Source: Escherichia coli
GTDB taxonomy: Bacteria; Pseudomonadota; Gammaproteobacteria; Enterobacterales; Enterobacteriaceae
DNA: 64,000 nt
Assembly: GCF_036507355.1 (NCBI RefSeq)
Contig: NZ_AP027877.1
Direction: 5' to 3' (one strand)
In this document: positions 2,107 through 43,777 of the stretch, one piece after another
How the letters are laid out: every line of letters begins with the position of its first letter
Numbering within the stretch: the first letter of the stretch is position 1
Made by a program: the position numbers and the translations under genes
Notes under the pieces: generated by a model
Databases searched by the model: none
Told to the model about the DNA's origin: nothing
Seen by the model: the letters and a program-made list of their open reading frames with translations, nothing else

Positions 2107-2760
2107 TTATATCCCTTCTTCACTCTCTTTTTTCGCTTCTGCCTTCTCGATTTCACGATACCAGCGTGGATGGTGTTTCTTAGCCCAGCGACGGCTCACC
2201 TTCCCTTCGATCATCCCTTTAATCGATCCTTTCACCCAGAATGCCATATACATATGGATCAGGATGGCGTGGATCAGGATGATACCCGCAGCCGCGTGGA
2301 TCAGCAGGCTGTAGCGAACAACCTGCATCGGGAAGTACTGCGCAAAGTACGGACGCCAGATAATCACCCCGGTCACCAGCAGCACGAAAATCATGCTCAT
2401 GATCGACCAGAACATCATCTTTTGCCCGGCGTTGTACTTACCAACATCCGCCACTTTATGCTCATTGCCTTTCAATACTTCGACAATGTTCAACAGCCAC
2501 GGAATATCTTTCTTATCCGGGATGTTGTGATGCACAAAACGCACAAACATAAACATCAGTGCGACGAAAATCGCAATGCCGAAGAATGGGTGCAAAATGC
2601 GTCCCATCTGCGGCGTACCGAAGGTTTGCGTCAGCCATTGCAGCGTCGGGAAGAAGAACGAAATCCCGGACAGCGCCACCAGGAAGAAGCAAATCACCAC
2701 GGTCCAGTGACAGGCGCGATCAATAAATTTGGTGCGCACAATCATTTTCGACTTACTCAT
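2107..2760 (-). CDS. fdnI: Formate dehydrogenase-N gamma subunit (cytochrome b556)
   Basis: 217-aa membrane protein from [12 protein letters not shown]; overlaps fdnH stop by 8 nt. Confidence 0.9.
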
Positions 2761-3637
2761 GATGATCCTCCTCGTCATCGTCCACTTCCTTATTCGGGCC
2801 AATACCGATGTAGTGGAAAATCAACCCGGCAAAAGTGGCAATAAAGCCAGCCGCTGCCAGCGGTTTCAACGCGCCTTTCCACAGGCTTACCGAGGTGTCG
2901 ATCTTCGGATCTTTCGGCAGACCGTGATACAGCTCCGGCTGATCGGCGTGATGCAGCACGTACATAACGTGCGTACCACCGACCCCTTCCGGGTTGTAGA
3001 CGCCAGCATGTTCGTAACCACGCGCTTTCAGTTTCGCCACGCGCTGTTCCGCCAGCTCCAGCATCTCCTTCTTGGTGCCGAAGTGGATAGCCCCGGTCGG
3101 ACAGGTTTTCACACAAGCCGGTTCCTGGCCGACGCTGACGCGATCGACGCAGAGCGTGCATTTATATACCCGGTTATCCTCTTTGTTGAGGCGCGGAATA
3201 TTAAACGGACACCCGGCAATGCAGTAACCACAGCCGATGCAGTTTTCCGACTGGAAATCGACAATCCCGTTAGCGTACTGAATGATTGCACCAGCAGACG
3301 GGCACGCCTTCAGGCAGCCGGGATCTTCACAGTGCATACAGCCGTCTTTACGGATCAGCCACTCCAGCTTGCCGTTCTGTTCGGTTTCGCTAAAGCGCAT
3401 CACCGTCCAGGACTTGGCGCTCAGATCGGCGGGGTTATCGTAAACCCCGACGCAGTGCCCCACTTCATCACGGATGTCGTTCCACTCCGAACACGCCACC
3501 TGACAGGCTTTACAGCCGATACAGGTGGAAACGTCGATAAGTTTTGCGACTTCTGCTTTGTAATCACGCACCTGAGAAGGCGGCGTGATGGAGTTAGTTG
3601 CGGACCTTTTGATAATGTCCTGCGTTTCCATAGCCAT
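2753..3637 (-). CDS. fdnH: Formate dehydrogenase-N beta subunit (4Fe-4S)
   Basis: 294-aa ORF with multiple CxxCxxCxxxCP ferredoxin motifs; synteny. Confidence 0.9.
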
Positions 3638-3649
3638 CTGTTCGCCCCC

Positions 3650-6600
3650 TTACGCCTTCTCGATGTTGACTAAGAACGCTTTATATTCCGGCGTTTGCGA
3701 GTTTGCATCACCGACATTCGGCGTCAGAGTGTTAGCGATATAACCTTTACGCGCGACACCCTCAAAGCCCCAGTGGATTGGAATACCCACCGTTTCAACC
3801 TGCTGACCATTTACATTCAGCGGTTTCAGACGACGCGTTACCACAGCCACCGCGCGGATAAAGCCACGCTTGCTTGAGACAGTGACACGATCGCCATTAT
3901 TAATGCCTTTCGCCGCCGCCAGCGTTTCGCTGATTTCCACAAACTGTTCCGGCTGAGCAATTGCGTTGAGCAATGCGTGCTTGGTCCAGGTGTGGAAGTG
4001 CTCGGTCAGACGATAGGTCGTACCCACATACGGGAACTGCTCTTTTTTACCCATCCGCAGTGCGTCTTGTTCATACAGACGAACAACCGGGTTAGACACC
4101 ACGTTCGGATGCAGCGGGTTAGTGCCCAGCGGCGTTTCAATCGGCTCGTAGTGTTCCGGGAACGGACCTTCCGCCATTTTGTTGATGGCAAACAGGCGTC
4201 CCATCCCTTCCGGCTGCATGATAAACGGCCCGGTTGGCGTACCCGGTGCGGCATTGCCGAAGTCAGGAATATCGTTACCCGTCCACTTGCTGCCGTTCCA
4301 CTGGATCAGCATCCGTTTCGGATCCCACGGTTTACCGTTGATATCCGCCGAAGCACGGTTGTACAGCACGCGACGGTTGAGCGGCCACGCCCAGGCCCAT
4401 CCCAGCGTATTCCCCAGACCGGACGGGTCGGAGTTATCGCGGTTAGCCATCTGGTTGCCCTGCTCTGTCCAGCTACCGGTGTAGATCCAGCAAGAAGATG
4501 CGGTTGTACCGTCATCACGCAGATGCGCAAAGCTACTCAGCAACTGACCTTTCTTCGCAATCAGCACGCCATTAGCATCATAGAGATCTTCCAGCGCATA
4601 GCCGTTGTTCTCTTTTGCCACTTCGTCAGATTGCGGTTCGTGCGGCTGCTTGTAGTTCCAGCTCATCTTCATCAGCGGTTCTACGCCTTTACCACCTTCG
4701 GCCTGGTACAGCTCGCGCAGATGATGGTAGATACCCGCCAGAATTTCGCCGTCGTTACGCGCTTCGCCCGGCGCGTCCTGACCTTTCCAGTGCCACTGCA
4801 ACCAGCGACCGGAGTTAGCGATAGAACCATCTTCTTCGGCAAAGCAGGTCGAAGGCAGACGGAATACTTCAGTCTGAATAGACGCCGGATCGACATCGTT
4901 CGACTCGCCGTGGTTCTGCCAGAAGGTAGAGGTTTCAGTCACCAGCGGATCGATAACCACCATGTACTTCAGTTTGCTCAGGCAGCTCACCACTTTGTTT
5001 TTGTCCGGGAAGGACGCAACCGGGTTAAAGCCCTGGCAGAAATAACCGGTGACTTTGCCTTCGTCCATCATGTTGAAATACTTGATGACGTCGTAGGTCT
5101 GGTCCCACTTCGGCAGCCAGTCATAGCCCCAGTTGTTCTCTTTCTGCGCGGCATCGCCATAGAAAGATTTCATCAGGCTAACGAAGAACTTCGGATAGTT
5201 GCTCCAGTAGTTCACCTGACCAGCCAGCGTTGCTTTCGGCGTGTTCGCTTCCAGATACGACTGCAAATCAACCTGTTTTTCTGACGGCAGCGTCAGATAA
5301 CCTGGCAGGCTGGTAGAGAGCAGGCCTAAGTCAGTCAGCCCCTGAATGTTGGAGTGACCACGCAATGCGTTCACGCCGCCACCGGCCATACCCATGTTAC
5401 CGAGTAGCAACTGGATCATCGCCATAGTACGGATGTTCTGCGCACCCACGGTGTGCTGCGTCCAGCCCAGCGCGTACAGGAAGGTGGTTGTGCGATCCGG
5501 TGCGCTGGTGGAGGCCAGCACTTCACACACTTTCAGGAAGTCGGCTTTTGGCGTACCGCAGATGTTTTCAACGACGTCCGGCGTGTAGCGGGAAACGTGC
5601 TCTTTCAGCAGGTTCCACACACAGCGCGGATGAGTCAGTGTTTCATCGCGTTTTGCATAGCCGTTTTCATCGAACTGATAGTTCCAGGACGATTTATCGT
5701 ATTGCCGTTTTTCAGCGTCGTAGCCGCTGAACAGACCGTCTTCGAAAGCAAAATCATCACGCACCAGCAAGCTGGCGTTGGTGTAATGCTTAACGTATTC
5801 AGCGTTGATTTTGTTGTTTTCGATCAGGTAGCGCAAAACGCCAGACAGGAACGTAATGTCCGTACCGGAACGAATAGGTGCGTAAATATCCGCTACAGAA
5901 GCGGTACGCGTAAAACGGGGATCGACAACGATCAAGGTTGCATCGTTGTTGTTTTTCGCTTCCATCGCCCAGCGGAAACCGACGGGATGCGCTTCAGCAG
6001 CGTTACCGCCCATTACCATTACGACGTTAGCGTTTTTGATATCCACCCAGTGGTTGGTCATCGCACCGCGACCAAATGTTGGAGCAAGACTTGCTACCGT
6101 TGGTCCGTGTCAGACGCGCGCCTGGTTGTCTACCGCCAGCATCCCGAGGGAGCGGGCAAATTTCTGGGTCAGCATCCCGGTTTCGTTGCTGGCACCGGAA
6201 GCACACAGCATACCGGTAGAAAGCCAACGGTTTACCGTTACGCCCTGCTCGTTCTTTTCAATAAAGTTAGCGTCACGGTCAGCTTTCATCAGCTTCGCAA
6301 TACGGGAGAATGCTTCTTCCCAGCTAATGCGCTGCCATTTGTCAGAACCTGGCGCACGATATTCCGGGTAGCGCAGACGGTTTTCGCTGTTGACGTAATC
6401 CAGCAAACCGGCCCCTTTCGGGCACAGCGCACCACGGCTTACCGGATGATCCGGGTCACCTTCAATGTGATAAATCGCTTCTCTGGCGTTTTTCGCGCCA
6501 TCACCCAGGCTATACATCAATAGCCCGCAACCTACGGAACAGTATGTGCAGGTGTTACGGATCTCTTTAGCGCGTAATAATTTGTAGTTTCGCGCCTGAG

Positions 6601-6697
6601 CCAGTGCTTGCTTCGGGGCAAAGCCCAATGCCGCTACTGTTGTTCCAGCCATACCGCCCGCGCAGATTTTAAAAAATTGTCTGCGACTGACGTCCAT
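3650..6697 (-). CDS. fdnG: Formate dehydrogenase-N alpha subunit, selenocysteine-containing (in-frame UGA at 6110-6112 read as Sec)
   Basis: Two same-frame ORFs (6697-6110 and 6061-3650) separated only by a TGA; Tat signal MDVSRRQFFK; total 1015 codons as in FdnG. Confidence 0.9.
6065..6112 (-). promoter_or_regulatory. Selenocysteine UGA codon plus downstream SECIS-region of fdnG mRNA
   Basis: In-frame TGA at codon 196 of fdnG; bacterial SECIS elements lie immediately 3' of the UGA (fold not computed). Confidence 0.6.
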
Positions 6698-6761: not shown

Positions 6762-6775
6762 TTGCGCGAAATCAA
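6762..6775 (-). promoter_or_regulatory. Putative FNR binding site of the fdnG promoter
   Basis: On the fdnG strand reads TTGATttcgCGCAA, a near-consensus FNR half-site pair (TTGAT-N4-ATCAA), about 70 bp upstream of the fdnG start. Confidence 0.5.
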
Positions 6776-8068: not shown

Positions 8069-9169
8069 ATGAAATTAAAAATAGTTGCGGTGGTTGTAAC
8101 TGGTTTGTTAGCTGCGAACGTAGCACACGCTGCCGAAGTCTATAACAAGGATGGTAATAAACTCGACCTTTATGGCAAGGTTACCGCTCTACGTTATTTT
8201 ACTGATGATAAGCGTGACGATGGTGATAAAACTTATGCCCGTCTCGGCTTTAAAGGAGAAACGCAAATCAATGATCAAATGATTGGTTTTGGTCACTGGG
8301 AATATGATTTTAAAGGCTATAACGATGAAGCCAACGGCTCGCGCGGCAACAAGACCCGTCTGGCCTATGCTGGTTTAAAAATTAGTGAGTTTGGCTCTCT
8401 GGACTATGGTCGTAACTACGGTGTCGGCTATGACATTGGTTCATGGACCGATATGTTGCCAGAATTTGGTGGCGATACCTGGAGTCAGAAAGATGTCTTC
8501 ATGACATACCGTACCACCGGTGTAGCAACCTATCGCAACTACGATTTCTTTGGCTTAATTGAAGGGCTGAACTTTGCCGCGCAATATCAAGGCAAAAATG
8601 AACGTACTGACAACAGTCATCTTTATGGTGCAGACTACACGCGTGCCAACGGTGACGGTTTCGGTATCTCCTCAACTTATGTTTATGATGGCTTTGGTAT
8701 CGGTGCGGTATATACCAAATCCGATCGGACAAATGCGCAGGAAAGAGCCGCTGCTAATCCTCTTAATGCCTCCGGTAAGAATGCAGAACTGTGGGCCACA
8801 GGTATAAAGTATGATGCCAACAACATCTACTTTGCAGCTAATTACGCTGAAACATTAAACATGACCACCTATGGCGATGGTTATATCTCGAACAAAGCAC
8901 AAAGTTTTGAAGTGGTGGCGCAATATCAATTCGACTTCGGCTTGCGCCCATCACTCGCTTACCTGAAATCGAAAGGCAGAGATCTGGGCCGCTACGGCGA
9001 CCAGGACATGATTGAGTATATCGACGTTGGTGCGACGTATTTCTTCAACAAAAATATGTCGACCTATGTTGATTATAAAATCAACCTGATTGATGAAAGC
9101 GACTTTACCCGTGCCGTAGATATTCGCACCGATAACATCGTCGCAACGGGCATTACCTATCAGTTCTAA
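8069..9169 (+). CDS. yddL: General porin of the OmpC/OmpF/OmpN family (intact counterpart of the K-12 yddL pseudogene)
   Basis: 366-aa ORF, signal peptide ending [20 protein letters not shown]-terminal YQF; position between yddG and the LRR genes. Confidence 0.75.
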
Positions 9170-9182
9170 CATCCTCTCCTGA

Positions 9183-9208
9183 CCAGCCCTTCTCTGGGCT
9201 GGTTTTTG
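9183..9208 (+). terminator. Rho-independent terminator after the porin gene
   Basis: CCAGCCC-ttctct-GGGCTGG stem followed by TTTTT. Confidence 0.55.
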
Positions 9209-9338
9209 ATTTAAGTGCTGCTGTATGACTCCTTAAGTAAAAATGAGCAATTTTTGATATTTCTGGTCATTCACCTCAATTAATATTATTCCATACCCTC
9301 CGGGGACATCTTACTATAATATTTATTGATGAGTGATT

Positions 9339-10598
9339 ATGACCAATATTAATACAGCTTGTGTAAAAAATAATGCCAGTTATCAATTTAATAACGCATC
9401 AACTAACAAAGAAACCATCTCCAGCAATTTTTGTGAACGACTAGAACAATGGGGTAATAAGTCGATTAATAATGGTGAAGAAAGAGCAATTGCCGTGGAG
9501 CGAATTAAAGAAGCTTACAATTCGAACATGGCATCTCTTGATTTGTCATATCTTGATTTGAGTGAGTTGCCGCCTATCCCTTCGACAGTTAATACGTTAA
9601 ATCTGGAAAACAATTGTCTAACTTGTCTTGACTTTGCTGACAATGCTAGTCTCGTCAATATCAACCTCAGCTTTAATAAAATTAACACGATAACCTTTCC
9701 AAATGAATCAAATCTGGAAAACATTTATATTGATCATAACAATCTGGAAAGTTTAGATTTAAAAAATCAGCATTCATTGGTTAATCTGGAAGCGCAAAAT
9801 AATAACCTAAAAAAAATTAATATTTCTGATAGTCATAAACTGAAATTTCTTAATCTTGATTATAACAAACTATCATCACTGGATGTCTCCCGGCAAGAGT
9901 CTCTGATTGAGTTAAGTGCCCATCACAATATGATCACTGACCTTATATTACACAATCATCCCAGGATGAAAACAATCACTTTAAACGACAACCATATTGC
10001 ACATTTAAACACCAAAACCACTACAAAACTTGAATATTTAAACTTAAGCAATAACAATTTATTGCCAACCAATGACATTGATCAACTAATATCATCAAAA
10101 CATCTTTGGCATGTATTAGTTAACGGCATCAACAATGATTCACTTGCACAAATGCAGTACTGGACTGCAGTAAGAAATATAATTGATGACACTAATGAAG
10201 TGACCATTGATTTATCTTATAATCTGGCAATCACAAATATCGATACCAGTGATGAACATCTTGTAGAAGTAAGCGATAATTCCGAAGGTAATTATATAAA
10301 AGACAATGACTCAATGTCTATTCGTTATAGATCCAAATATTATTCCAGAGAGTATACCTTAATAGAAGAAGAAACAATATTTTCTGACGCAGAATTAAAA
10401 GCTATTCTGCCTATGCGTCGCATGTACGGGGTTGGTGACTATAAGTCAAATTCCTCTTCTCTATCCTCACACTCGGGGCTCAAGGACCCAACGGGCACAC
10501 CCGTCTGTTATTATATTCATAATGAGAGTAAACCTTCCTTAGGTTATGGTCCAACATGCAATAATTGGTTAAGCCAATCCTTTACAACAGAGTTATAA
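9339..10598 (+). CDS. yddK: Leucine-rich repeat protein with IpaH/YopM-like N-terminal cap
   Basis: Repeating LxxLxLxxNxL units of ~20-22 aa; N-terminal W..W...EER..AV.RIKE..........LDLS.L.L..LP pattern; low GC; synteny (start could also be GTG 9333). Confidence 0.65.
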   Translation: MTNINTACVKNNASYQFNNASTNKETISSNFCERLEQWGNKSINNGEERAIAVERIKEAYNSNMASLDLSYLDLSELPPIPSTVNTLNLENNCLTCLDFADNASLVNINLSFNKINTITFPNESNLENIYIDHNNLESLDLKNQHSLVNLEAQNNNLKKINISDSHKLKFLNLDYNKLSSLDVSRQESLIELSAHHNMITDLILHNHPRMKTITLNDNHIAHLNTKTTTKLEYLNLSNNNLLPTNDIDQLISSKHLWHVLVNGINNDSLAQMQYWTAVRNIIDDTNEVTIDLSYNLAITNIDTSDEHLVEVSDNSEGNYIKDNDSMSIRYRSKYYSREYTLIEEETIFSDAELKAILPMRRMYGVGDYKSNSSSLSSHSGLKDPTGTPVCYYIHNESKPSLGYGPTCNNWLSQSFTTEL

Positions 10599-23259: not shown

Positions 23260-23626
23260 GATTGTGCTCCTTTTGAAAGATGTCAGTAAAATTAACACAC
23301 ATTGTGAATGTCGTGTGTCCGGTAATGCGTTTTTACGACAATAATGCCTGCTTGAAATTGTAGATATTTGCACTACACCCTTTTAAATAAAGCACCAACA
23401 AATCTTCAAATTGCAGGACATATTCTTCTGCCAATATACCATTAAGAAAACATCAAGTTCCCGGCTTGCCAATTTATTAACGCCCATTATAGACGCTGAA
23501 ACAAGCCACGGACAAAGAAGATGCCAAAATTACCGGCAATGCAGAAAAACTCAACGAACTGTTAGGTTAAATGGATAATTTTGAATTTTGGTTCAATATA
23601 GTGACACTATAAAATTACTTTGTATC

Positions 23627-23649
23627 GGGCAGGTGCCCTGCCCTTTTTT
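23627..23649 (+). terminator. Orphan rho-independent terminator (perfect 7-bp GC stem + T6)
   Basis: GGGCAGG-tgc-CCTGCCC followed by TTTTTT; overlaps a second CCCTTTTT/AAAAAGGG inverted repeat; no annotated + strand gene ends here. Confidence 0.5.
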
Positions 23650-23712
23650 AGTTAAAAAGGGCTGAAAGAAGAAATACGCATCATTCATGGAAAACTCGCC
23701 GCGATATGGTAA

Positions 23713-24015
23713 TTCGCGGCATGGCAATTAACTTGCCAGTCAGAGGATATTGTTGTCCGTTATGGTAGCGAAGATTTTGCCATCAAACTTTTTAATGCAA
23801 CATTGCCGGAAGCAGAGACGGTAGCAGCCAGAGTGAAACAAGAACTTAAACTGGCAGCTATCCCGCATCAGGCATCTGCTGTTAGTGCGTTCGTTACGGT
23901 TAGTCACGGGATTACCTGGTCTGCTCCCGCCAAAACGGCTGAACAAATTATTTCAGATGCCGACGCCGCGTTATACCGGGCGAAAGCAAGTGGGCGAAAT
24001 CGATGGGCTTTATAA
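23713..24015 (+). pseudogene. C-terminal fragment of a GGDEF-domain (diguanylate cyclase-like) protein
   Basis: In-frame translation ...RYGSEDFAIKL...SAFVTVSHGITW...ADAALYRAKASGRNRWAL matches the C-terminal half of GGDEF domains; no N-terminal part and a stop immediately upstream. Confidence 0.5.
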
Positions 24016-24078
24016 CTATTAGGGGACTGGCTAGATTACGTATCTTCGCTCTTAACAAGGACTGACGGCAGGGCAAGA

Positions 24079-24560
24079 TTACGAAAGCCCGCTCCCCGCA
24101 AGGACTGACGCCAGATAGTTTCTGTCCATGGCTGCTTTTCGCATCTTATGTCTTAACCCTGCCTTGAATACCTTATCATTCGTCAAAATATTAATAGCAA
24201 TGTGCCGTATCCCTGGAAATAATTCTGCTGCATTTCCTCTTCTTATTTTGCAGTCGTCTTCATTCATTACCACGTCCAGACGCCAGTGCAGCTTATTCTC
24301 CACGTGCCAGTGGTTTCGGATTGCTGTGGCGAACTTCTCTGCGGTTAAATCAGCAGAACTGATATAATATCTGACCGTCATTTCTGGCTCTTTCTTTTGT
24401 TCTGCTATTATGGACCGAAAGGAGACTGCCACGCATAATTTCTTCAGCCCTTTCCATTCAAACGTGAAATCAATAAGTTCATCAGGAACATCGCAAACAA
24501 TATGAAGACGGATTTCTTCTCTGCCGTGACTAAAATGCGAATTATTTAGTACAAAAAAAG
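24079..24560 (-). pseudogene. 3' remnant of an H-repeat / ISAs1-family transposase gene
   Basis: ORF 24079-24432 encodes ...[43 protein letters not shown]..., the conserved C-terminus of H-repeat proteins such as YdcC; further matching residues continue upstream in a shifted frame; N-terminal two-thirds absent. Confidence 0.6.
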
Positions 24561-24636
24561 CGGCGCACCTTGTTCTTTCCCAGATTCCTAATATGGCAAC
24601 TTTAAGTTATCGCCGTCTATACTTATAGAAATTTCA

Positions 24637-25092
24637 TCAGGGGTGACATAAATAGAATTTTTTTTCATCCTCAATTGCCCATAACTGATTAATAAAAAAG
24701 TGTTTTTTATCATCTAATAACAAATCATCACATGTAGTAAAATTATTAATATCAAAAAAATCATCAGCACAATTAATTTTTAAATTTAAAAAATAAAGAA
24801 AAATATTATTGATTGATTTGAGTGTAAACCACTTGTCATTAACAAATTTATAGCCAGATGATTTTATAAAATAATAATTATCTCCTGGTATAAAGGCATA
24901 CATATCATTTAAGGTTATACTCAACAAAAAACTACGACCTGGTTTAATAGTATTCCAGCGTTCAGGATTCGTATTAATTTCAAAAGGACATGAACCACCT
25001 AAGTAGTCCAACGTGATATTCCCAGAGTTGATCCTGGATGGTTTTTTGCATATCGCATCATATTCATCTCCTTTTCCATCTTTTACTTTCAT
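24637..25092 (-). CDS. Hypothetical protein (151 aa), AT-rich, translationally coupled to the upstream small ORF
   Basis: Start ATG overlaps the stop of the upstream ORF (ATGA at 25089-25092); no recognisable motif. Confidence 0.4.
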   Translation of the reverse strand: MKVKDGKGDEYDAICKKPSRINSGNITLDYLGGSCPFEINTNPERWNTIKPGRSFLLSITLNDMYAFIPGDNYYFIKSSGYKFVNDKWFTLKSINNIFLYFLNLKINCADDFFDINNFTTCDDLLLDDKKHFFINQLWAIEDEKKFYLCHP

Positions 25093-25379
25093 AGGTAGAT
25101 AATATTTAGAAAAAAATACGTGGTAGAGCTATTGTTAGTAAAGGTTATGTTAGCAAAAATCCTGTTATTTTTTTTACTCATAGCTAATTGAGCATTGACA
25201 TCCGCTATATAATTTATATGATTACATTTTTTCTTACACTCATCATAATTTTCGATAGGATAAATTAATGGCCTTCCTTTGATATCTCTCTCAAGCCCAA
25301 ACCCGTATTTTTTTATTAAAACCATTTCATCCGCAGTCGATTGAAAGGAATAGAAAAATATAATATTTACGATTGTCAT
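25089..25379 (-). CDS. Hypothetical small protein (96 aa), AT-rich
   Basis: ORF only; hydrophobic N-terminus; coupled to the downstream ORF. Confidence 0.35.
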   Translation of the reverse strand: MTIVNIIFFYSFQSTADEMVLIKKYGFGLERDIKGRPLIYPIENYDECKKKCNHINYIADVNAQLAMSKKNNRIFANITFTNNSSTTYFFLNIIYL

Positions 25380-25431
25380 TATTATGATTTTTTTATAGCT
25401 TGCAGCATTAATATATTTCTCGACTTATTAG

Positions 25432-26280
25432 TTAATGGAGAAGTGTTTTTTCTAATTCCGCTATTTTTTTCTTAACTGAATTGCTTAATATTTCATCATT
25501 AATCGAGTCTATCTCACTTTCAATTAATCTTATTTCAAAATATCTTTCTATGTTATATGCATTCTCAAATATTTGATCTTTTTGTTTAGAGATCAGTTTA
25601 GTTGCAATACGGATATGTTCGTCATATGAAACTTCATCCTCTTTGCACGTTGAATATTTATCAGTAGTTGTATAATCCTGTGACCACATACCACCTTTTT
25701 TATTATCCCCATAATACCACTGAATATGAGACATTTCATGACATAAAGTAGCAACATGAGAATCCTTTCCCGTTACTGGATTTTTTTTGCCATCTCTATA
25801 CTCAAATTTTGCGCCTATGTTAATTATATAGGGCATATCCTTACTTGGGCTGACGAATGCTGCAAATTCATTACAACCTGTATAATTTATAAAACTGCTC
25901 ATTGTTAAATCATTAGCTATAATCATTAATCTTCTCACGCCATCCATCATAAGAAATCTAGCATTCATGCGCCTACCTGTATTATGTCCATATTTTCTTA
26001 TATTAACTTCCTTATTTCCTTTAACACCAAAGATCTTACTGAAATAATATTCCTCCTGTGCTCCCCATCTCAAAAGATCATCTGCTCTTTTTATCAAAAC
26101 CAACTTTTGTGCCTTACGAGCCTTATCAATCATTATTTTAAAATGATCAGTTATTTTTTGCTCTTTCACACATTCTTCTGGCTCTGGCTTTGGTTGTCCA
26201 GAAGTTTGATTATTATCGTCCATAGTGTCCTTCCATTGAGAGAAAATCATCATTCGCAAATAGCAACTAAAAAGCAGCAT
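25432..26280 (-). CDS. Hypothetical protein with HExxH motif (putative zincin-like metallopeptidase or toxin domain)
   Basis: Motif ATLCHEMSHIQWYYG; ~30% GC; true start may be the internal MDDNNQ (26223); function inferred from motif only. Confidence 0.45.
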   Translation of the reverse strand: MLLFSCYLRMMIFSQWKDTMDDNNQTSGQPKPEPEECVKEQKITDHFKIMIDKARKAQKLVLIKRADDLLRWGAQEEYYFSKIFGVKGNKEVNIRKYGHNTGRRMNARFLMMDGVRRLMIIANDLTMSSFINYTGCNEFAAFVSPSKDMPYIINIGAKFEYRDGKKNPVTGKDSHVATLCHEMSHIQWYYGDNKKGGMWSQDYTTTDKYSTCKEDEVSYDEHIRIATKLISKQKDQIFENAYNIERYFEIRLIESEIDSINDEILSNSVKKKIAELEKTLLH

Positions 26281-26410
26281 TACTTGACCTTTCCCTGCAT
26301 AACAATATTTATAAAATAATACGTTTTATGATCTCACCTTGGGCTCCCAACAAGATAATTTCAGTTTTAAAGACTTTCACGAAAAAAATATAGAAATACC
26401 TCACCACCCT

Positions 26411-26701
26411 TCACTTACCAATTAATCTCACAGGAAATCCAACTTCCTTACCACAAATACAATCCCAAGTAACACCTCCCAAAATTTTTGATACTTTAGG
26501 CTGCAATGGCATTATTGACATTATAAATTTATCAAGTTCTTCGCTATATTTAATTCCCTTTATATTTCTTATTATTGATATTCTAGCAGTAAAGATAGCC
26601 GTCTCTCCATCTACACTAAAAGTGTAATTACAATTTTTTGTAATCTCATCAAATTCAACCGATAACAAATCAATATTATGGTTTGTAAACACTATGCCCA
26701 T
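26411..26701 (-). CDS. Putative immunity protein for the upstream effector
   Basis: 96-aa ORF whose start overlaps the effector 3' end by 26 nt; call rests on position and size only. Confidence 0.4.
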   Translation of the reverse strand: MGIVFTNHNIDLLSVEFDEITKNCNYTFSVDGETAIFTARISIIRNIKGIKYSEELDKFIMSIMPLQPKVSKILGGVTWDCICGKEVGFPVRLIGK

Positions 26702-28115
26702 TCCATACCTCCTTAAATTCCTGTTCAGTCATCAGATATCGACTCCCTTGATATGGATCATATATTATCACATTCCCAGCATCATCAACACCCTTAACAA
26801 GTACCCAATGCCCTACTTTACTTCCAGAATCCCACATCATTGCTCCCCATGAACCAGTATTACTGAGGGCATATAAACTAGATTCGCTCACTGCATTCCC
26901 TTCCCAGCCGACATCAAATTTATTAAGCTTGTTTGCCAGCGACGTCATAGATGTTAATTCTGTTCCAATTACATTTTGCGTGACAAAAATATACCTATCC
27001 CTAAGCAACATTTCCCCACAGGCCGCTCCACAGCCTGTTAAAGTCAATTGCTTTATTACATTTGAATCTAAAACCTCATCAAATACTGTCCAATTGCCAC
27101 CAGCACCACCTTCTAAAACTACCGGCTCTACAAATACTTTCCCAGAGATATTTTCTTCTGGTATTTTTGCGGGTATCATAAAGCCCCATAAAAAGCTGGC
27201 AAAATGCTCCAGAGCAATCTGATCACCATTATTTGCATCCATTATCATTTTTTTAAGTGCATCCCATGCTTGCCCATTTATCAATGAATCACTAATATTA
27301 AATAAAGCCTGTTCTTTTTCGTTTAAATTTATATTTGCCTGTTCACATAACCCATCTTCGCCTATCGGGCAAGCAACCGTTGCCGTTGCCGTATCTAACA
27401 GAGCATCGAATGTAACTAAGGCTAAATCCGCCACACCATGTAAAGTGGTGATTGCTCCATTCCCCATTTGAGTAAGTGTGTTCTCTACAAACCATTCTCT
27501 AATTTGAGATTTATCTCCTTCAATATCATTCCTGAGAGATTCTCTGATATTCTTTATTGAAAAAAACTCCCCCCATGATTGGTCAGGATCTTTTATTTGG
27601 AATAAATCATTTTTAACCTCAGGTGAAATATCTCCGTCAAAAATATTACCAACAGAGAGGAGATCCTTCAGAAGCAGTAAATCGTGTATTACTTCAGCAG
27701 TCCTTTCATAATTAAAAGTTCTATCAATGACAGAAATCATTGGTGATTTTATTTTGGTATATAATTTACCAAGGCAGTTATGGTTATTAATCCCAACAAC
27801 TGAACCATGATAAGCGACAGGTCTCCCCTCTATTGTTACAGTCGGACTTCCCGTTAAAATAACGCAGTCACCTGTTCCTTGAGATGTACCAGATATGACA
27901 CCTTTACCGGCATTACTTTGAGTTCCAGCAATCACTGAACCAACATTTAAAGCTCTGCATCCACGCGCCCATACCGTTGAACTGTACTGCCTTTCACTAT
28001 CTAAAGTCTGGTAACTGTCAAAAGGAACCTTGTCACCTCCTACTTCACATACATCTGGTGAAGAGCACACGACTTTAAATCTACATTCACCATCCCCGAT
28101 ATGATAGCTACCCAT
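26676..28115 (-). CDS. Putative T6SS effector: N-terminal DUF4150-type PAAR-like domain, C-terminal C39-like papain-fold Cys peptidase domain
   Basis: N-term SPDVC...VPFDSY...GKGVISGTSQG...TVTIEGRPVAYHGSVVGINNHN resembles the DUF4150 pattern; C-term GCGAACGEML and GHWVLVKGVDD...IIYDP resemble Cys and His motifs of C39/papain-like peptidases; downstream of vgrG. Confidence 0.6.
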   Translation of the reverse strand: MGSYHIGDGECRFKVVCSSPDVCEVGGDKVPFDSYQTLDSERQYSSTVWARGCRALNVGSVIAGTQSNAGKGVISGTSQGTGDCVILTGSPTVTIEGRPVAYHGSVVGINNHNCLGKLYTKIKSPMISVIDRTFNYERTAEVIHDLLLLKDLLSVGNIFDGDISPEVKNDLFQIKDPDQSWGEFFSIKNIRESLRNDIEGDKSQIREWFVENTLTQMGNGAITTLHGVADLALVTFDALLDTATATVACPIGEDGLCEQANINLNEKEQALFNISDSLINGQAWDALKKMIMDANNGDQIALEHFASFLWGFMIPAKIPEENISGKVFVEPVVLEGGAGGNWTVFDEVLDSNVIKQLTLTGCGAACGEMLLRDRYIFVTQNVIGTELTSMTSLANKLNKFDVGWEGNAVSESSLYALSNTGSWGAMMWDSGSKVGHWVLVKGVDDAGNVIIYDPYQGSRYLMTEQEFKEVWNGHSVYKP

Positions 28116-28698
28116 AATATTTTTTTCCTATACATTCAGGAATAATACAACTCAGCACTCCTTCTTTCATTCCAAAAAAATCAGGTATTGTCAATCTCCA
28201 GGTAAGGTATATTTCCTGTCGATTTAAATCGATAACCATTGTATCCGCAACAGGTAAGAACATATGAGATGTATTATGCTTGGTTTTTAATATAAGTACA
28301 GGTCGTATACCTGGCAATTTTGTCTTAACAACCTGTTCAAATTTAAAAAAACCTTCAAGAGTGATGTTTTCATCGCCAGAGAGAAACCCCGCGTATATCA
28401 TATCCGGATGAGCACTATTGTAGAACCTCTCATCAAAATCATCCGGCAAATAGGGATAGCGCTTTTCACGCCATACTTCATTGTAGGTTCCTGCATACTG
28501 GAGGCGACTTTTCCACCATCGAGATACAGGGCCAACGCCTTGAAAAAAGTCAGATTCCCCATTAAAAATGGTAGCGTTTTCTGACAAAGCAGAGCTGGTT
28601 ATTTGTGGGAGTTTATATTGACAACTTGTATTAAGTTGGGAAATATCAGGATAATATCCACAACCTACAGGGTTTGCTGAAAAAACCAATTTTCCCAT
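28108..28698 (-). CDS. Hypothetical protein in adaptor/chaperone position between vgrG and the effector
   Basis: 196-aa ORF; stop overlaps effector start by 8 nt; adaptor role (DUF2169-type by analogy) inferred from gene order only. Confidence 0.35.
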   Translation of the reverse strand: MGKLVFSANPVGCGYYPDISQLNTSCQYKLPQITSSALSENATIFNGESDFFQGVGPVSRWWKSRLQYAGTYNEVWREKRYPYLPDDFDERFYNSAHPDMIYAGFLSGDENITLEGFFKFEQVVKTKLPGIRPVLILKTKHNTSHMFLPVADTMVIDLNRQEIYLTWRLTIPDFFGMKEGVLSCIIPECIGKKYYG

Positions 28699-29560
28699 AC
28701 CATCTGGTTGCCAAATACCACCGTAAGCAAGCTCATAGCGTAGAGGAATATTAATAATTTTATCGTGAGATGCTGATCGTTCGCTACCACAATCTTCTGA
28801 TCATGACTGCCTTCCTTCTTACTCCCAACATTCACCGTCTGACCCACACCCACCGTAATTTTCTGGTTATTGGTTATGGTTTCCGTGTGGTCGTGTTTCA
28901 CCGTCGTCGTCCGGTCATTCAGCACCTCCGTATCCATGTTCTTCTGCGCATGGATATACACCTGCTCATTACTGGTGGCGTCTTCAAACCGCAGCTCGTT
29001 AAATCCGCTTCCTTTATAGGTTTTTGACCGGATGGTCATCTGCGTCTTCGTTCCCGGCAGGTCGCCCGGCGAACGGTTGTCCTCATGGTAGGTCCGCCCC
29101 ATGATTATCGGCTGGTCCGGGTCGCCGTTCAGAAAATCAACAATCACCTCCTGGCCCACCCGCGGTATCGCCAGGTTACCGAACCCCGGCCCCGCCCACG
29201 CCTGCGATACCCGCACCCAGCATGAACTCGCCTCCGTCATCCCGTGATAACGGTCCCAGTGGAACTTCACCCGTACCCGGCCATGTTCATCGCAGAAGAT
29301 TTCCTCTCCCGCAGGCCCGGTGACAATGGCACTCTGCGGCCCGTCCACCTTCGGTTTGCTTTGCAGCCGTGGACGCCACGTCCGGTCCGCCGGTATCACC
29401 TCTAACTGATTTCCCAGCGTGGTTCCTCTCCCTTGGCTGCCGTGCAGCGCCTGCGGCTGGTTTCCTGACAGAATGCTCTGTACCACCTGCCATTCACGGT
29501 TCAGCATCTTCTGCGGATGAGGTGTACTGGCAATAGCGGACACTACCATTTGTTCTTTTT

Positions 29561-30379
29561 TTAAGCAGCCATCTGATGATATTTTTCCCTGAAGGCTGCC
29601 GGGGAGATATTCCCCAGACGAGAGTGACGACGCTGACGATTGTAGAAAATCTCAATGTATTCCCGTATTACTGAGATGGCTTCATCCCGGTTATTAAAAC
29701 GATAGTGGCTCAGGCTCTCATTTTTCAGCGTTCCCCAGAAGCTTTCCATCGGAGCGTTGTCGTAACAGTTACCTTTACGCGACATTGATGTTTTCAGACC
29801 AAACTGCTCCTGTATGACCCGGTAATCGTATGCGCAGTACTGTGAACCTCGATCAGAGTGGTGGATTAGCCCGGCAGGTGGGCGCTGTCTCCTGAGCGCC
29901 ATAAACAGGGCTTTACCTGTCAGCTCTTTTGTCATGCGCTCTCCCATGGCGTAGCCGACAATTTCGCACGTATAAACATCTTTGATGCCAGCGAGGTACA
30001 ACCATCCCTCCTGTGTGGCAACATACGTCAGGTCCGCCACCCAGACCTGATTTGGTGCTGTAGGAGCGAACGTCTGGTTCAGCAGATTTGGCGCAACTGG
30101 CAGATTGTGGTTCGAGTTCGTAGTCGCTCTGAACTTGCGTTTCTGCTTACAGCGTAGCCTTAGCTCCTTACGAAGACGTGCCAGTCGGTCACGACCAACG
30201 ATGATGCCATTCTCTGCCAGCTCCGTCTGGAGCCGCCGGGTTCCATATGTTTCGCGAGTGCGGATATGTGCCACCTTAATCTCCAGTTTTAGCCGCTCAT
30301 CACTTTGTTTTCTGTCTGAGGGTTCATGCTGTACCCAGTTGTAATAACCGCTCCTGGATACACCAAATACCTGACACAT
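29561..30379 (-). CDS. IS600-like transposase OrfB (DDE integrase core)
   Basis: 272-aa ORF with IS3-family OrfB sequence; normally expressed as an OrfAB fusion by -1 frameshifting. Confidence 0.8.
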   Translation of the reverse strand: MCQVFGVSRSGYYNWVQHEPSDRKQSDERLKLEIKVAHIRTRETYGTRRLQTELAENGIIVGRDRLARLRKELRLRCKQKRKFRATTNSNHNLPVAPNLLNQTFAPTAPNQVWVADLTYVATQEGWLYLAGIKDVYTCEIVGYAMGERMTKELTGKALFMALRRQRPPAGLIHHSDRGSQYCAYDYRVIQEQFGLKTSMSRKGNCYDNAPMESFWGTLKNESLSHYRFNNRDEAISVIREYIEIFYNRQRRHSRLGNISPAAFREKYHQMAA

Positions 30380-30414
30380 CGCTTCAATGGGAAATTGTTG
30401 TCGCCATTGTTCGA

Positions 30415-30717
30415 TTAACGCGTATTTTTCAGCGACTCCTGTGCAAAATACGCTGTTGCTTTTTTTAATATATCTCGCTCAAGGCGAGCTTCATTTAACG
30501 CCTTACGCAGTTGCAGAATTTCAGATTCCAGTTCAGCCACCGTGCGGGAACCAGGAGTACCGAGCCCTTTTCTGGCGGCGGTAACCCATTGTCCTAAAGT
30601 GCCTTCAGGAAGAGATAATCGGGAAGCGCCTTCACTGATCGAAAGTTGATTTTCAAGAACCGTTCTGACAGCTTCGGCTTTGAACTCTTTAGAGTAACGT
30701 TGGGTTTTTCTGCTCAT
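30415..30717 (-). CDS. IS600-like transposase OrfA (HTH)
   Basis: 100-aa ORF MSRKTQRYSKEFKAEAVR... typical of IS3-family OrfA. Confidence 0.8.
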   Translation of the reverse strand: MSRKTQRYSKEFKAEAVRTVLENQLSISEGASRLSLPEGTLGQWVTAARKGLGTPGSRTVAELESEILQLRKALNEARLERDILKKATAYFAQESLKNTR

Positions 30718-31725
30718 TATTAGCTCCTTCTGATGCCATTCTATTTCAGGAAGGAGTGTCCGTTAAACTCAGGCTACCTCAGGATGCCCCGTCAGCGTAA
30801 ACCGCGTTCCCGGCCACAGCCTCGGCGAATTACTCTGCCCTGTGGCCTTTTCCGCATCACTGCGCAGGCTCTCCATCTGGTACAGCGTGAAATCCTTGCC
30901 GTGCTGCTCATCCTTGAACCTTCCCGGATAATCAAATATTTCATACTGCGCCAGCTGTCCGTTCAGGTTCTCACCCTGCTGCTCATACATCCCCGGCCAG
31001 TCCGGCACCTTAAACGTGTAATCCTGGCTCTGCACCGACGACGGGCGGACATGCGCCTCATAACGGAACATACTGAGACACTCCGTCTCCGCTCCTGCCG
31101 ATGTGTCCGGGTTAAACGGAAGCTCTCCCGCCTGTGACAGCCCCGCCACATCGTCGCACAGCGTCAGCTTCTGCTCCGGACTGTCCGCCGCAAACCGCTC
31201 AAAGAAGAAAATTCCCTCCTCCGCCCACAGCCGGGACAGAAACGCCAGGTCGCTTTCCCCGTACTGGACACAGAACTCCCGCGCCGGATGGTCCTCATAA
31301 AACAGCGGCGTCCACTCCGTGACGCCGTTCTCGTTCAGTAACGTGGCCGATATCGTCCGGATATCCTGCTGCTGGAAGATACGGAAGTTCTGCCGCAGCC
31401 CGCACCGCCATAACGGCGGCTCAATACGCAGGTGATAACGCATCTGCCAGCCGTTATTCTCCTGCATACCAAAACCCGCCACCACGCCGGTGACATAACG
31501 CTGCGCCACTGCGCCCTGCCAGATGGTCAGCGTCGCCTTCTTCTCCAGCAGCATCTCCGCCGTCTGCATAAAAGAGTCGCTGGCAACATCCACACTCATC
31601 ACAAACGGATATGACTGGCTCTGGATTAACCGGAAGCTCACCACTGCAAAGGTGTCCGGCTCCTGGCCGTCAACCTCCAGCGTAAAGCGAAGACCTTTTA
31701 ATGACATAAATACCTCTCAGACATA

Positions 31726-32010
31726 TCAGCCTATATTTACCGTGCCGCCACCGATAACCACGCCGCCGCAGTCAACAGCATCACCGCTTCTGGCGGCGGG
31801 CAGACCGTCAATAAAGACGGTTGAAGAACCTCTGGCGATTTTTCGGGGATGAGGGGGATGCTTCGGTTTAGCATGCGGCGTCAGCGGATCTCCCTGACGG
31901 GCTGCGGGAAGACCATCGATAAAGACGGTGGATGACCCGGCGGTGATGACGGTCTCGTAATAACCGTCGTGCTGGGTGCCTTTGTCGGTGAGTTTGGCTG
32001 CTAAAGGCAT
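31726..32010 (-). CDS. PAAR-repeat protein (T6SS spike tip)
   Basis: 94-aa ORF containing GLPAARQGD and GLPAARSGD; immediately upstream of vgrG on the same strand. Confidence 0.8.
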   Translation of the reverse strand: MPLAAKLTDKGTQHDGYYETVITAGSSTVFIDGLPAARQGDPLTPHAKPKHPPHPRKIARGSSTVFIDGLPAARSGDAVDCGGVVIGGGTVNIG

Positions 32011-32340
32011 AATTCCTCCTGTTCAGAATTTCTACAGCAGCAGGTTTCAAAAATCCGGAGAAATATTCAACGAAATATTAATCACTTCACCGGATATTCT
32101 GATACGTACCTTCACTGGTCTATTTAAGTAATACAAATTGTTGGCGTGTATTAAGTTCCATTTTGTTCTCCTTAATTATGTAAGGAGTATTTGATCATGT
32201 ATAAGCAATAAAAACAGCTTCAGGAAATAAGGAATATCGCAATTTTTAAACATAAAATGCGAATCGTTCAATACAAAAAAGCAGCGTTGCGTAATCTTTC
32301 CCTGATTAAATACGCTACCGCCCTACTCTGATGACATGAT

Positions 32341-32397
32341 CTGCACTGCACTGCACTGCACTGCACTGCACTGCACTGCACTGCACTGCACTGCACT
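32341..32397. repeat. Pentanucleotide tandem repeat (CTGCA) x 11.4
   Basis: Perfect direct repeat read from the sequence; intergenic, ~330 bp upstream of the PAAR start. Confidence 0.95.
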
Positions 32398-32594
32398 ATC
32401 ATATCGACATGTTTCTCTACATGCGAAGAGATGTTTTATTTTCGGATTATATTAAATTGATATTTCATATAAAAAACGAAATTACATCAATCATATAAAT
32501 AATTGTATCAACTTTAATTACTATTCATAGCAAACAAATGGATATCCAGTTAACTACGCCAGTGATTCATTAACATTAACCTCCGGCATTATTG

Positions 32595-33212
32595 TTAAAT
32601 AATGACATTCCTTTTTAATACTTCTTGTAATTTCGGTAACTGACATACAGCATCAGCAATCGCACTGATATTCGTGGCATTATCCTGAAACCATTCATGC
32701 CCAGGCCCCCATGTGCGCATAGTGCAAAGATAACAGTCCACCAGCGTTAGTTGCTCACCAAACGCATAAGGTTCAGCGGTCAATTGTGAATTCAGCCAGA
32801 TATAAAGCGATTTACGATATTCAATAACATTCTTCTTTAACTGTTCGGGTGCGTCAGGAGCCCAACGCTCAGGGTAATCGGCGAAAGTGAATGTTGGATA
32901 GACATTAGCAACCAGCCAGACCAATAGCCGTTGAAACTGCTGACGTTCGGCGCGCCCAACCGGTGGCGCAAGGTCCGGGCGACGATCGAGAACCATCAAT
33001 GCAATCGCCGCTGTCTCCGTCATAATCTCGTCATTTTCCAGCGCCAGTGTCGGAATCTGACACAACGGGTTCAGGGTTTTCAATAACTCGCGTGAAGTTC
33101 CCTCGTGGTCAAAACCACTGACATCAACGAACTGATAAGGAATATCAGCCAGTGTTAGCATCAGCTCACTGATTGTAGAGCCCCATCCGGGTACGCCATA
33201 CACCTTAATCAT
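32595..33212 (-). CDS. yncG: Glutathione S-transferase-like protein
   Basis: 205-aa ORF; synteny next to ansP. Confidence 0.8.
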   Translation of the reverse strand: MIKVYGVPGWGSTISELMLTLADIPYQFVDVSGFDHEGTSRELLKTLNPLCQIPTLALENDEIMTETAAIALMVLDRRPDLAPPVGRAERQQFQRLLVWLVANVYPTFTFADYPERWAPDAPEQLKKNVIEYRKSLYIWLNSQLTAEPYAFGEQLTLVDCYLCTMRTWGPGHEWFQDNATNISAIADAVCQLPKLQEVLKRNVII

Positions 33213-42070: not shown

Positions 42071-42758
42071 GTACGGGCGTCCAGCCAGATGAATAAAACG
42101 CGCGCAAATATGCGTCATTTTTTGACGTGCATCAAGTTTTTTAACCGGTTTGAGAAAAAAACATCAAACAGCAACTTGCCCTTATCCATCTTCAGAATGA
42201 GTATTATTGCGGATTTTCTTAACCCGTACTATACACATAGGGGCAATGATAAAAGGTGGCAAAAATGAATGTTTCCAGTAGAACTGTAGTACTGATAAAT
42301 GTCTTTGCTGCTGGTTTGTTTACTCTTATCTCTATGAGATTTGGCTGGTTTATTTGATGTAGTGATTTTGCACGCAGCACGTACTGTCAGAGAAATCAAC
42401 TCTCTGACAGTACGCAAGATCTTCTCATACTCTCCAGGTTTACAACATTATCCTTAATATTTACTTCTTTTTGCTGGCATCTACATTGAAATGAGTAGAA
42501 AACATCCCCCTACTGTCGTCTATACAAACAGCTTACTGATTCAAAGGGAATCTTGTTTTCACATTTTTCTATCATGAATACTTTATACGCGCGGGAGTCT
42601 ATAAATGCTTTATACTTTCAAGGAATAACGTAAATATAAAAAGATGGCGTGAAGTATATGCATGGCAGGATGTTTGCAACCTCCTTGATGACGCTGCCCC
42701 ATTGAAATTGCAAACCCCGCCCTGGTTATCTTGCCCATTTATCATGCAAAACAGATAA

Positions 42759-43568: not shown

Positions 43569-43777
43569 TGTTAATACTTCTACTTATAAATTATTAATTT
43601 AATAACGATACTCTAAAGCCTTATGCTAATCAACTGTGACAGGATGAAAAATCGCCATCAAACATTTAGCCTAATTTTTACGCTAGTTATTAATGTAATC
43701 ATTCTAATACTTAACCGCCATTAAACTCAGAACCTAAAACGATAGTGGCCGTCCTATAACAGCCACTAACATCTAAC

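Follow-up and report, generated by a model that had tools for sequence, protein, structure and literature searches.

Formate dehydrogenase-N is a nitrate-inducible, respiratory enzyme of which FdnG is the catalytic alpha subunit, and in the solved structure the selenocysteine at residue 196 is a ligand of the active-site molybdenum. The closest described system is the fdnG gene of Escherichia coli K-12, locus b1474, with PDB entries 1KQF and 1KQG as its structures and Rfam family RF01989 as its SECIS element. According to the passages of PMC13188914 that cite the original work, the UGA-encoded selenocysteine of K-12 fdnG and the requirement for a stem-loop were described in 1991 (Berg, Li, Heider and Stewart; Berg, Baron and Stewart; JBC 266:22380 and 22386). 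The reference for bacterial SECIS elements is the hairpin of fdhF (Rfam RF01988, SECIS_2), and the SelB contact positions and other defining features of such elements are a bulged U17, the loop nucleotides G23 and U24, and an apical stem located 11 nt from the UGA (PMC8659212). A third system is K-12 fdoG, the paralogue of fdnG, which also carries its selenocysteine codon at position 196.

The DNA we investigated is a 64-kb stretch from E. coli, hereafter the window, in which a first-pass annotation had noticed two open reading frames on the minus strand that lie in the same frame and appear to be separated only by a TGA at codon 196. It had read the split as translational recoding and not as a broken gene. 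Our analysis leads to the same reading: the region 6697-3650 (-) is almost certainly an intact E. coli fdnG, whose UGA at codon 196 is recoded as selenocysteine with a SECIS element downstream. The sequence data show one frame with a single in-frame UGA, a full-length match to the solved selenoprotein, a SECIS match, and a hairpin that is constrained and covaries at the nucleotide level among orthologues. The coordinates of the features are collected in Table 1.

The two open reading frames, 6697-6110 (195 aa plus the TGA) and 6061-3650 (803 aa), are both on the minus strand and share a frame. The second is given from position 6061 only because the program that lists the open reading frames takes the first ATG as a start. 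Between the two lie 48 nt (6109-6062) that are open in the fdnG frame and encode HGPTVASLAPTFGRGA; the TGA at 6112-6110 (-) therefore divides the two reading frames on its own, as had been claimed. In translation, the fdnG frame runs through 1016 codons up to its terminal stop, with the TGA at codon 196 as the sole internal stop, and a single stop within a frame of this length is far beyond chance. The first-pass annotation had named a frameshift elsewhere in the gene as an observation that would speak against recoding. We looked for one across the 1016 codons, in the translation and in the alignment to PDB chain 1kqf_A, and found neither a frameshift nor a second lesion.

Table 1. Features of the fdn region of the window (positions are those of the 64-kb stretch)
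Feature	Position	Strand	Basis
fdnG, formate dehydrogenase-N alpha subunit, coding sequence of a 1015-residue selenoprotein	3650..6697	-	3048 nt including the stop
Twin-arginine motif S-R-R-Q-F-F-K, codons 4-10 of FdnG	6668..6688	-	read from the translation
UGA codon 196, read as selenocysteine	6110..6112	-	sequence; aligned to residue 196 of 1kqf_A
Bacterial SECIS element, fdnG/fdoG type (Rfam RF01989 SECIS_3), UGA included	6057..6115	-	full-length model match
Whole SECIS hairpin, lower helix and apical stem-loop	6067..6107	-	fold of this sequence
Apical stem-loop, putative SelB-binding part	6081..6098	-	folds and Rfam structure line
fdnH, formate dehydrogenase-N beta (iron-sulfur) subunit	2753..3637	-	TIGR01582; annotated fdnH in matching genomes
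fdnI, formate dehydrogenase-N gamma (cytochrome b) subunit, 217 aa	2107..2760	-	NF007558; annotated fdnI

The comparison with the solved protein places the UGA at the selenocysteine position. Residues 1-1015 of the fdnG product align onto residues 1-1015 of 1kqf_A, the solved alpha subunit of E. coli formate dehydrogenase-N, with 2398 bits and three differing residues, and the non-standard residue (X) of that chain at position 196 coincides with the UGA. The earlier identification of codon 196 as the selenocysteine site of formate dehydrogenase-N is thereby borne out. The locus is also like K-12 in its gene, operon and neighbours, in having UGA at codon 196 and in matching SECIS_3 over its full length, and the 75 nt that we examined around the UGA are identical in the two. 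It is unlike K-12 fdnG in 31 of 3048 nt (about 99% identity) and in three amino acid substitutions only (L342F, D493G and S666A); none of the differences is near the UGA or the hairpin, and they represent strain-level variation only.

If the internal TGA had arisen by nonsense mutation, or by an error in sequencing, then fdnG would be a pseudogene in two fragments. The naive list of open reading frames does contain two entries, and gene callers that take UGA as a stop would give the same split. However, of 5433 E. coli records, 5366 match the TGA and its 91-nt surroundings at 100% identity, and K-12 fdnG and fdoG both have TGA at this codon. All 120 loci from other species that we recovered have it as well, though the search pattern demanded TGA. 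A degraded gene is also difficult to reconcile with the lack of a second lesion in 1016 codons, with only 3 amino acid changes among the 31 nucleotide differences from K-12, or with a solved protein that has a non-standard residue at position 196. In RefSeq, the matching genomes carry fdnG as one continuous 3048-nt coding sequence, as does K-12, and the pseudogene flag is absent. We therefore consider a disrupted gene very improbable and retain recoding of the UGA as the explanation for the split, in agreement with the first-pass annotation.

The first-pass annotation had also predicted a SECIS hairpin directly 3' of the UGA, and the sequence there matches RF01989 SECIS_3 over model positions 1-59 of 59, with 84.3 bits (gathering score 63) and E=1.3e-20. 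This is the only gathering-level Rfam match in the whole 64-kb window. Membership in SECIS_2, the fdhF type, was rejected, as the window reaches 28.8 bits against a threshold of 70, whereas K-12 fdhF itself scores 87.1. Both the folds of this sequence and the Rfam structure line have U17 (6096) bulged and G23, U24 and C25 (6090-6088) in the apical loop. Nucleotides 4-14 lie between the UGA and G15, where the apical stem begins, which gives a spacing of 11 nt. The fdnG hairpin fits the defining features listed in PMC8659212, that is, the U17 bulge, G23 and U24 in the loop, and the 11-nt spacing.

Folding energy separates this element from shuffled sequences less clearly. For the 45 nt 3' of the UGA, the minimum free energy and centroid structures are identical (-13.8 kcal/mol). 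Folding these nucleotides, the check put forward in the first pass, did return the expected hairpin, but not an energy clearly better than that of shuffles (z = -1.70; 11 of 200 shuffles do equally well). For the 59-nt element the value is z = -0.77, and 39 of 200 shuffles are as good. Folding stability is not a curated criterion of SECIS_3, and we did not count the energy as evidence of function. Folding alone would not settle the hairpin; what settles it is the covariance model together with the covariation analysis.

Orthologues for the covariation analysis were collected by scanning species-representative genomes with a pattern that fixed the peptide only and required the TGA. The scan returned 120 loci in diverse bacteria, comprising 77 distinct 63-mers. 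In these 77 sequences every cell of the apical helix is paired (100%), a value to be read with the fact that a pattern fixing the peptide also fixes many paired bases. At two pairs both members are third-codon positions: pair 21/33 (6095/6083 in the window) occurs as GC, AU, GU and CG, whereas AU, CG and GC are found at pair 24/30 (6092/6086). Both show compensatory change, with 16 double changes at the former and 28 at the latter, and none of 500 shuffles matched the observed pairing or covariation score; these statistics ignore phylogenetic relatedness. All 77 of the 77 orthologues have G23 and U24, even though the search pattern placed no constraint on the codon to which they belong.

An alternative explanation is that the UGA is decoded but that the nucleotide conservation after it reflects only the conserved peptide of the active site, or else conversion between the genes fdnG and fdoG, with RNA structure not required for function. 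That the folding energy is not significantly better than that of shuffles would agree with this explanation, and the peptide HGPTVASLAPTFGRGAM is so highly conserved that coding fixes many of the paired bases. The longest identical run between fdnG and fdoG extends over 71 nt from codon 195, and 19 of 19 synonymous-capable codons among codons 197-216 are identical, compared to 58% gene-wide; gene conversion could in principle account for the 71-nt identity. However, the third-position pairs 21/33 and 24/30 remain paired in 77 of 77 sequences through three or four pair types, and when the 3' partners are slid by 1-3 columns, pairing falls from 92.5% to 27-49%. Furthermore, the third codon positions behind the G of column 18 and behind U24 never vary, although synonymous codons are available, whereas those past the hairpin (after column 49) vary freely among the orthologues. 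The stem-loop was also found essential by mutation, as far as the citation of Berg, Baron and Stewart (1991) in PMC13188914 conveys. In light of these observations, an origin of the conservation in coding or conversion appears highly improbable, and selection on the hairpin as part of the recoding signal is the reading we prefer. Constraint beyond the hairpin, which the 71-nt identity to fdoG had hinted at, was likewise rejected, given the free variation of third positions after column 49.

The fdnG product scores 1621.8 on NCBIfam TIGR01553 (cutoff 814.2), covering positions 2-1014, and the neighbouring genes allow the enzyme to be named more precisely. FdnH scores 482.1 on TIGR01582 (cutoff 334.7), and FdnI scores 486.9 on NF007558 (cutoff 339), covering 1-217 of 217, with its gene equal in length and position to the annotated fdnI. 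Upstream of fdnG lies yddG, and downstream the order is fdnH-fdnI-yddM-adhP. In K-12, the paralogue fdoG is located at another chromosomal place, in the operon fdoGHI-fdhE beside fdhD. The gene is exceedingly unlikely to be fdoG, which would mean the same recoding in another enzyme, the aerobic formate dehydrogenase-O: FdoG likewise has Sec196, an identical SECIS and the same 84.3-bit SECIS_3 score, and TIGR01553 does not tell FdnG from FdoG, but the 31 differences in 3048 nt from K-12 fdnG contrast with 75% nucleotide and 77% amino acid identity to K-12 fdoG, the neighbours are yddG, fdnH, fdnI, yddM and adhP and not fdhD, fdoH, fdoI and fdhE, and the gamma subunit has 486.9 bits on the formate dehydrogenase-N model versus 268.4 on the formate dehydrogenase-O-type model. 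The gene name given in the first pass can thus be kept.

By analogy with molybdoenzymes exported through the Tat pathway, the twin-arginine motif near the start of FdnG is a predicted export signal. An FNR-like site, TTGATTTCGCGCAA, was considered upstream of fdnG and set aside: the window has 4 matches to the relaxed pattern where chance alone would give 3.7, and the site by itself is no evidence. No tRNA genes, selC included, were found within the 64-kb window; selA, selB, selC and selD are all outside it and presumably reside elsewhere in the genome of this strain.

Immediately 3' of the UGA, the mRNA folds into the SECIS hairpin, which exposes U17, G23 and U24. The way in which the UGA would then be read can be outlined from what has been published for E. 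coli fdhF and fdnG. SelB, a specialised elongation factor that carries GTP and Sec-tRNA(Sec), would bind the apical part. With the UGA in the A site, SelB would compete with release factor 2 and deliver Sec-tRNA(Sec), after which the ribosome would melt the hairpin and read it as codons 197-212. SelB binding and selenocysteine insertion probably take place in this strain as they do in those examples.

The hairpin of fdhF resembles that of fdnG in following immediately after the UGA, in the distance of 11 nt between UGA and apical stem, and in having U17 bulged and G23 and U24 in the loop; a SelB-dependent mechanism is probably common to both. In contrast, the fdhF element belongs to a different Rfam family, and codon 140 specifies its selenocysteine, in an enzyme that is shorter and cytoplasmic. 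The apical helices differ in detail as well: a possible extra pair, A22-U26, would leave fdnG with a 3-nt loop, whereas the loop of fdhF has 4 nt, and where fdhF has the pair U18-A29, fdnG has A18-U30.

In published work the lower helix is dispensable for a minimal SECIS. Across the 77 orthologues it pairs in about 87-88% of cells, in two registers. Neither register stands out among the orthologues, the two giving 86.6% and 88.5% pairing. Placed in the Rfam register, the sequence studied here has two non-standard lower-helix pairs, A-G and A-C; in its own best fold the lower helix is shifted by one base from that register and fits better, and the Rfam register was therefore rejected for this sequence. 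The E. coli-type register has A12-U45 and a bulged G47, and the Rfam consensus type has C12-G44 and a bulged C14; among the 77 orthologues, the base at column 12 is strongly linked to that at column 45. One could speculate that the lower helix is selected as a register-flexible spacer that tunes the efficiency of selenocysteine insertion, and not as a fixed structure, although we consider this rather unlikely. The two registers could equally represent lineage-specific codon usage on a dispensable helix. The two-register lower helix is the only feature described here that is not already in textbooks.

For annotation, these results mean that fdnG has to be called as a single selenoprotein of 1015 residues, with codon 196 entered as a translation exception, and neither as two open reading frames nor as a pseudogene; RefSeq already has it correct. 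The biology is already known: work from 1991 described the UGA-encoded selenocysteine of fdnG and the need for its stem-loop, the enzyme has a solved structure, and Rfam has a curated family for the SECIS. The locus serves as a positive control for a scan, in which folding energy barely flags a functional SECIS, whereas the covariance model and the covariation of third-codon positions detect it clearly.

The fdnG gene (window 6697-3650, minus strand) is an intact selenoprotein gene in which a single UGA occupies the active-site selenocysteine position of the solved enzyme. The first-pass annotation had read two same-frame ORFs, split by a TGA at codon 196, as one gene with a selenocysteine recoding site rather than as a pseudogene, and every element of this interpretation is supported. 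The split is confirmed exactly: both ORFs lie in one minus-strand frame in the ORF list, direct reading of the sequence (CAG GCG CGC GTC TGA CAC GGA CCA ACG GTA GCA AGT CTT GCT CCA ACA TTT GGT CGC GGT GCG ATG ACC) places the TGA at 6112-6110, and the 1016 codons translated from 6697-3650 contain just two stops, an internal one at codon 196 and the terminal one, with no frameshift along the entire gene. The ATG at 6061 is the first start codon 3' of the TGA, which explains where the downstream ORF begins; the 48 nt from the TGA to this ATG are open and the frame is unchanged. Two ORFs antisense to fdnG (3977-5284, 435 aa, and 5453-6523, 356 aa, both on the plus strand) are most likely non-coding shadows of its reading frame.

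In protein comparisons, for which X was substituted at position 196, residues 1-1015 of the product align to 1-1015 of PDB chain 1kqf_A (2398 bits). This chain is titled 'formate dehydrogenase, nitrate-inducible, major subunit' and has a non-standard residue at 196, matching the fdnG TGA and the earlier assignment of Sec to this codon. The product scores 1621.8 on NCBIfam TIGR01553 (formate dehydrogenase-N subunit alpha; cutoff 814.2), and the first and second downstream ORFs are FdnH (TIGR01582, 482.1 bits) and FdnI (NF007558, 486.9 bits over 1-217 of 217, versus 268.4 bits on the FDH-O-type cytochrome model). Of 5426 complete E. coli genomes, 5425 contain the 3.2-kb stretch, and its best matches (99.3-99.5% identity) are annotated fdnG and fdnH. 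In RefSeq, both K-12 MG1655 and the closest genome have fdnG as one continuous 3048-nt CDS without a pseudogene flag, with yddG upstream and fdnH, fdnI, yddM and adhP downstream. K-12 fdnG differs from the window gene by 31 nt and three substitutions (L342F, D493G, S666A) that leave the UGA vicinity unaffected; the K-12 paralogue fdoG shares 75% nucleotide and 77% protein identity with it. Sequence identity and gene order exclude that the gene is fdoG; it is fdnG, as the first-pass annotation had it. The alternative that the TGA is a nonsense mutation and fdnG a pseudogene is likewise excluded: the TGA is conserved across E. coli and in fdoG, and the gene carries no further lesion. Orthologues scanned in other species all carry the TGA too, but the scan pattern demanded it, so they provide no independent evidence against a pseudogene.

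Rfam scans with all families, of 601 nt around the UGA and separately of the whole 64-kb window, gave a full-length match to SECIS_3 (RF01989) at 6115-6057 on the minus strand (84.3 bits, gathering score 63, E=1.3e-20), the only gathering-level match in the window. K-12 fdoG also matches SECIS_3, with an equal score (84.3 bits), whereas K-12 fdhF matches SECIS_2 (87.1 bits), on which the window reaches only 28.8. Numbering the U of the UGA as nucleotide 1, the 59-nt element and the 45 nt 3' of the UGA each fold into a hairpin with the same apical part, G15 G16, bulged U17, A18-A22, loop G23-U24-C25, then U26-U30 and C31 C32. The stem of this apical part begins 11 nt downstream of the UGA, with U17 bulged out and the loop holding G23 and U24. 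A review (PMC8659212) names this set of features as what defines the E. coli SECIS and as the contact sites of SelB. The fdhF equivalents of U17, G23 and U24 are equally distant from the UGA, and U18-A29 in fdhF corresponds to A18-U30 in fdnG, a compensatory difference.

Folding the nucleotides 3' of the UGA, where the first-pass annotation had expected a hairpin, did produce one, with an energy that is not significant (45 nt, z = -1.70, 11 of 200 shuffles equally good; 59-nt element, z = -0.77, 39 of 200). Stability alone does not demonstrate a hairpin beyond chance. Judged from sequence comparison, nucleotide-level constraint on the predicted hairpin is established by the paralogue, by conservation within E. 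coli and by covariation across species. The longest identical run between the window fdnG and K-12 fdoG is 71 nt, from codon 195 (6115-6045, minus strand), the runner-up being 36 nt. Codons 197-216 include 19 that encode a conserved amino acid for which synonymous codons exist; all 19 are identical, against 58% gene-wide (naive probability about 3e-5). Of 5433 E. coli records, 5366 show 100% identity over the 91 nt surrounding the UGA.

For the species scan, each bacterial species was represented by a single genome, and the search pattern specified the peptide alone (V-U-H-G-P-x-V-A-x-L-A-P-x-F-G-x-G-A-M-T-N), so that third-codon positions could vary. It found at least 120 orthologous loci; those listed come from Enterobacterales, Pseudomonas, Burkholderiales, Methylobacterium, Xanthomonadales-type genera, a Geomesophilobacter and a Terriglobia MAG. 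Among the matches listed are 77 distinct 63-mers (alignment A1, to which column numbers refer), one being the window sequence. Within the apical helix (columns 18-25 paired to 29-35), 100% of cells are standard pairs. Two pairs join third-codon positions on both sides, 21/33 (GC 57, AU 13, GU 4, CG 3) and 24/30 (AU 49, CG 23, GC 5), each with zero mismatches. None of 500 shuffles attains the observed pairing or covariation score, and pairing falls from 92.5% to 27-49% once the 3' partners are displaced by 1-3 columns, although these statistics ignore shared ancestry and the peptide-fixing pattern itself fixes many paired bases. The Thr/Ser codon 5' of the apical stem, source of G15, is NCG in all 77, and the loop Ser/Gly codon, source of G23 and U24, is AGT or GGT in all 77; both have synonymous alternatives and are unconstrained in the pattern. 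Third-position covariation excludes a reading in which only the peptide is conserved and there is no RNA element, and the evidence shows an fdnG/fdoG-type SECIS hairpin directly 3' of the UGA that is under selection as RNA. The identity to fdoG extends about 20 nt beyond the hairpin, probably through chance, codon bias or gene conversion, because third positions there vary among orthologues; those of the Gly and Ala codons directly beyond the hairpin use three or four bases in the 77 sequences.

The lower helix occurs in two alternative registers among the 77 listed 63-mers, A12-U45 with bulged G47 (E. coli) and C12-G44 with bulged C14 (Rfam consensus). Placed in the Rfam register, the window sequence contains one A-G and one A-C pair, both non-standard, and its own best fold shifts the lower helix by one base, bulging G47 and pairing A12 to U45. 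Pairing holds in 86.6% of cells in the Rfam register and 88.5% in the shifted one; C at column 12 fits the former and A the latter, with a strong association between columns 12 and 45. The difference is treated here as minor, because lower-region pairing is described as far less important than the apical part (PMC8659212).

The mechanism at fdnG is modeled on established E. coli work (PMC13188914, PMC8659212), where the original reports by Berg et al. 1991 (JBC 266:22380 and 22386) are cited. The apical stem-loop would be bound by SelB carrying GTP and Sec-tRNA(Sec); once the UGA occupies the A site, SelB would deliver the Sec-tRNA(Sec), competing with release factor 2. The hairpin would be unwound by the ribosome, translated as residues 197-212 and refolded before the next ribosome; lacking selenium or sel gene products, translation would stop at codon 196. 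No tRNA genes were found in the 64-kb window; the trans-acting genes lie outside it and are assumed to be present in the strain.

Upstream, TTGATTTCGCGCAA at 6762-6775 (minus strand), 65-78 nt before the fdnG ATG, resembles an FNR site (consensus TTGAT-N4-ATCAA). The fdn genes are induced anaerobically, with which this candidate site would fit; the relaxed FNR pattern occurs in the window at chance frequency (4 matches versus 3.7 expected).

Apart from strain-specific differences, the window is collinear with K-12 1,495,034-1,554,454 in reverse orientation. The most notable difference is at the rhsE region, where 23349-32596 (minus-strand genes) has the appearance of a type VI secretion cargo island; about 8 kb without a K-12 match in the region replaces K-12 rhsE/ydcD/yncI/ydcC (rhsE pseudogene region). 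A VgrG-like gene there is split in two by an IS3-family element, and several ORFs at 24637-26280 that have no Pfam match are possibly immunity genes. The porin and leucine-rich-repeat genes (8069-10598) sit between yddG and narU, where K-12 has only a yddL remnant and a shorter yddK. Directly after patD the window has 1.3 kb (42464-43776) inserted relative to K-12, and the K-12 IS609 copy (insQ, K-12 1503161-1504908, ydcL/ydcO interval) is missing, its flanks joined at window 55871/55872.

Table. Features of the window, with their coordinates and the basis of assignment
Feature	Position	Strand	Basis or remark
ORF, 195 aa	6697-6110	-	ORF list
ORF, 803 aa	6061-3650	-	ORF list
Lower helix	6109-6100 with 6075-6067 (A1 columns 7-16 with 41-49)	-	fold, alignment
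Porin_1 family porin, intact, 366 aa	8069-9169	+	closest genome: 'porin OmpC'
Leucine-rich-repeat protein, 421 aa	9333-10598	+	closest genome: 'leucine-rich repeat domain-containing protein'
Tox-PAAR-like + Peptidase_C39 protein, 479 aa	26676-28115	-	domain match
DUF2169 ORF, truncated	28108-28698	-	matches profile positions 137-294 only
VgrG-like gene, piece with Phage_base_V/Gp5	28665-29549	-	domain match
IS3-family rve transposase	29561-30379	-	domain match
IS3-family element, small upstream ORF	30415-30717	-	
VgrG-like gene, piece with Phage_GPD	30769-31707	-	domain match
Hexapeptide-repeat transferase ORF, 269 aa	42759-43568	-	within 1.3-kb insertion

The site is the E. coli fdnG Sec196 recoding site, which was described in 1991 and has entries in RefSeq annotation, Rfam (RF01989) and PDB (1KQF). 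Its chief use is to remind annotators and to give methods a positive control.
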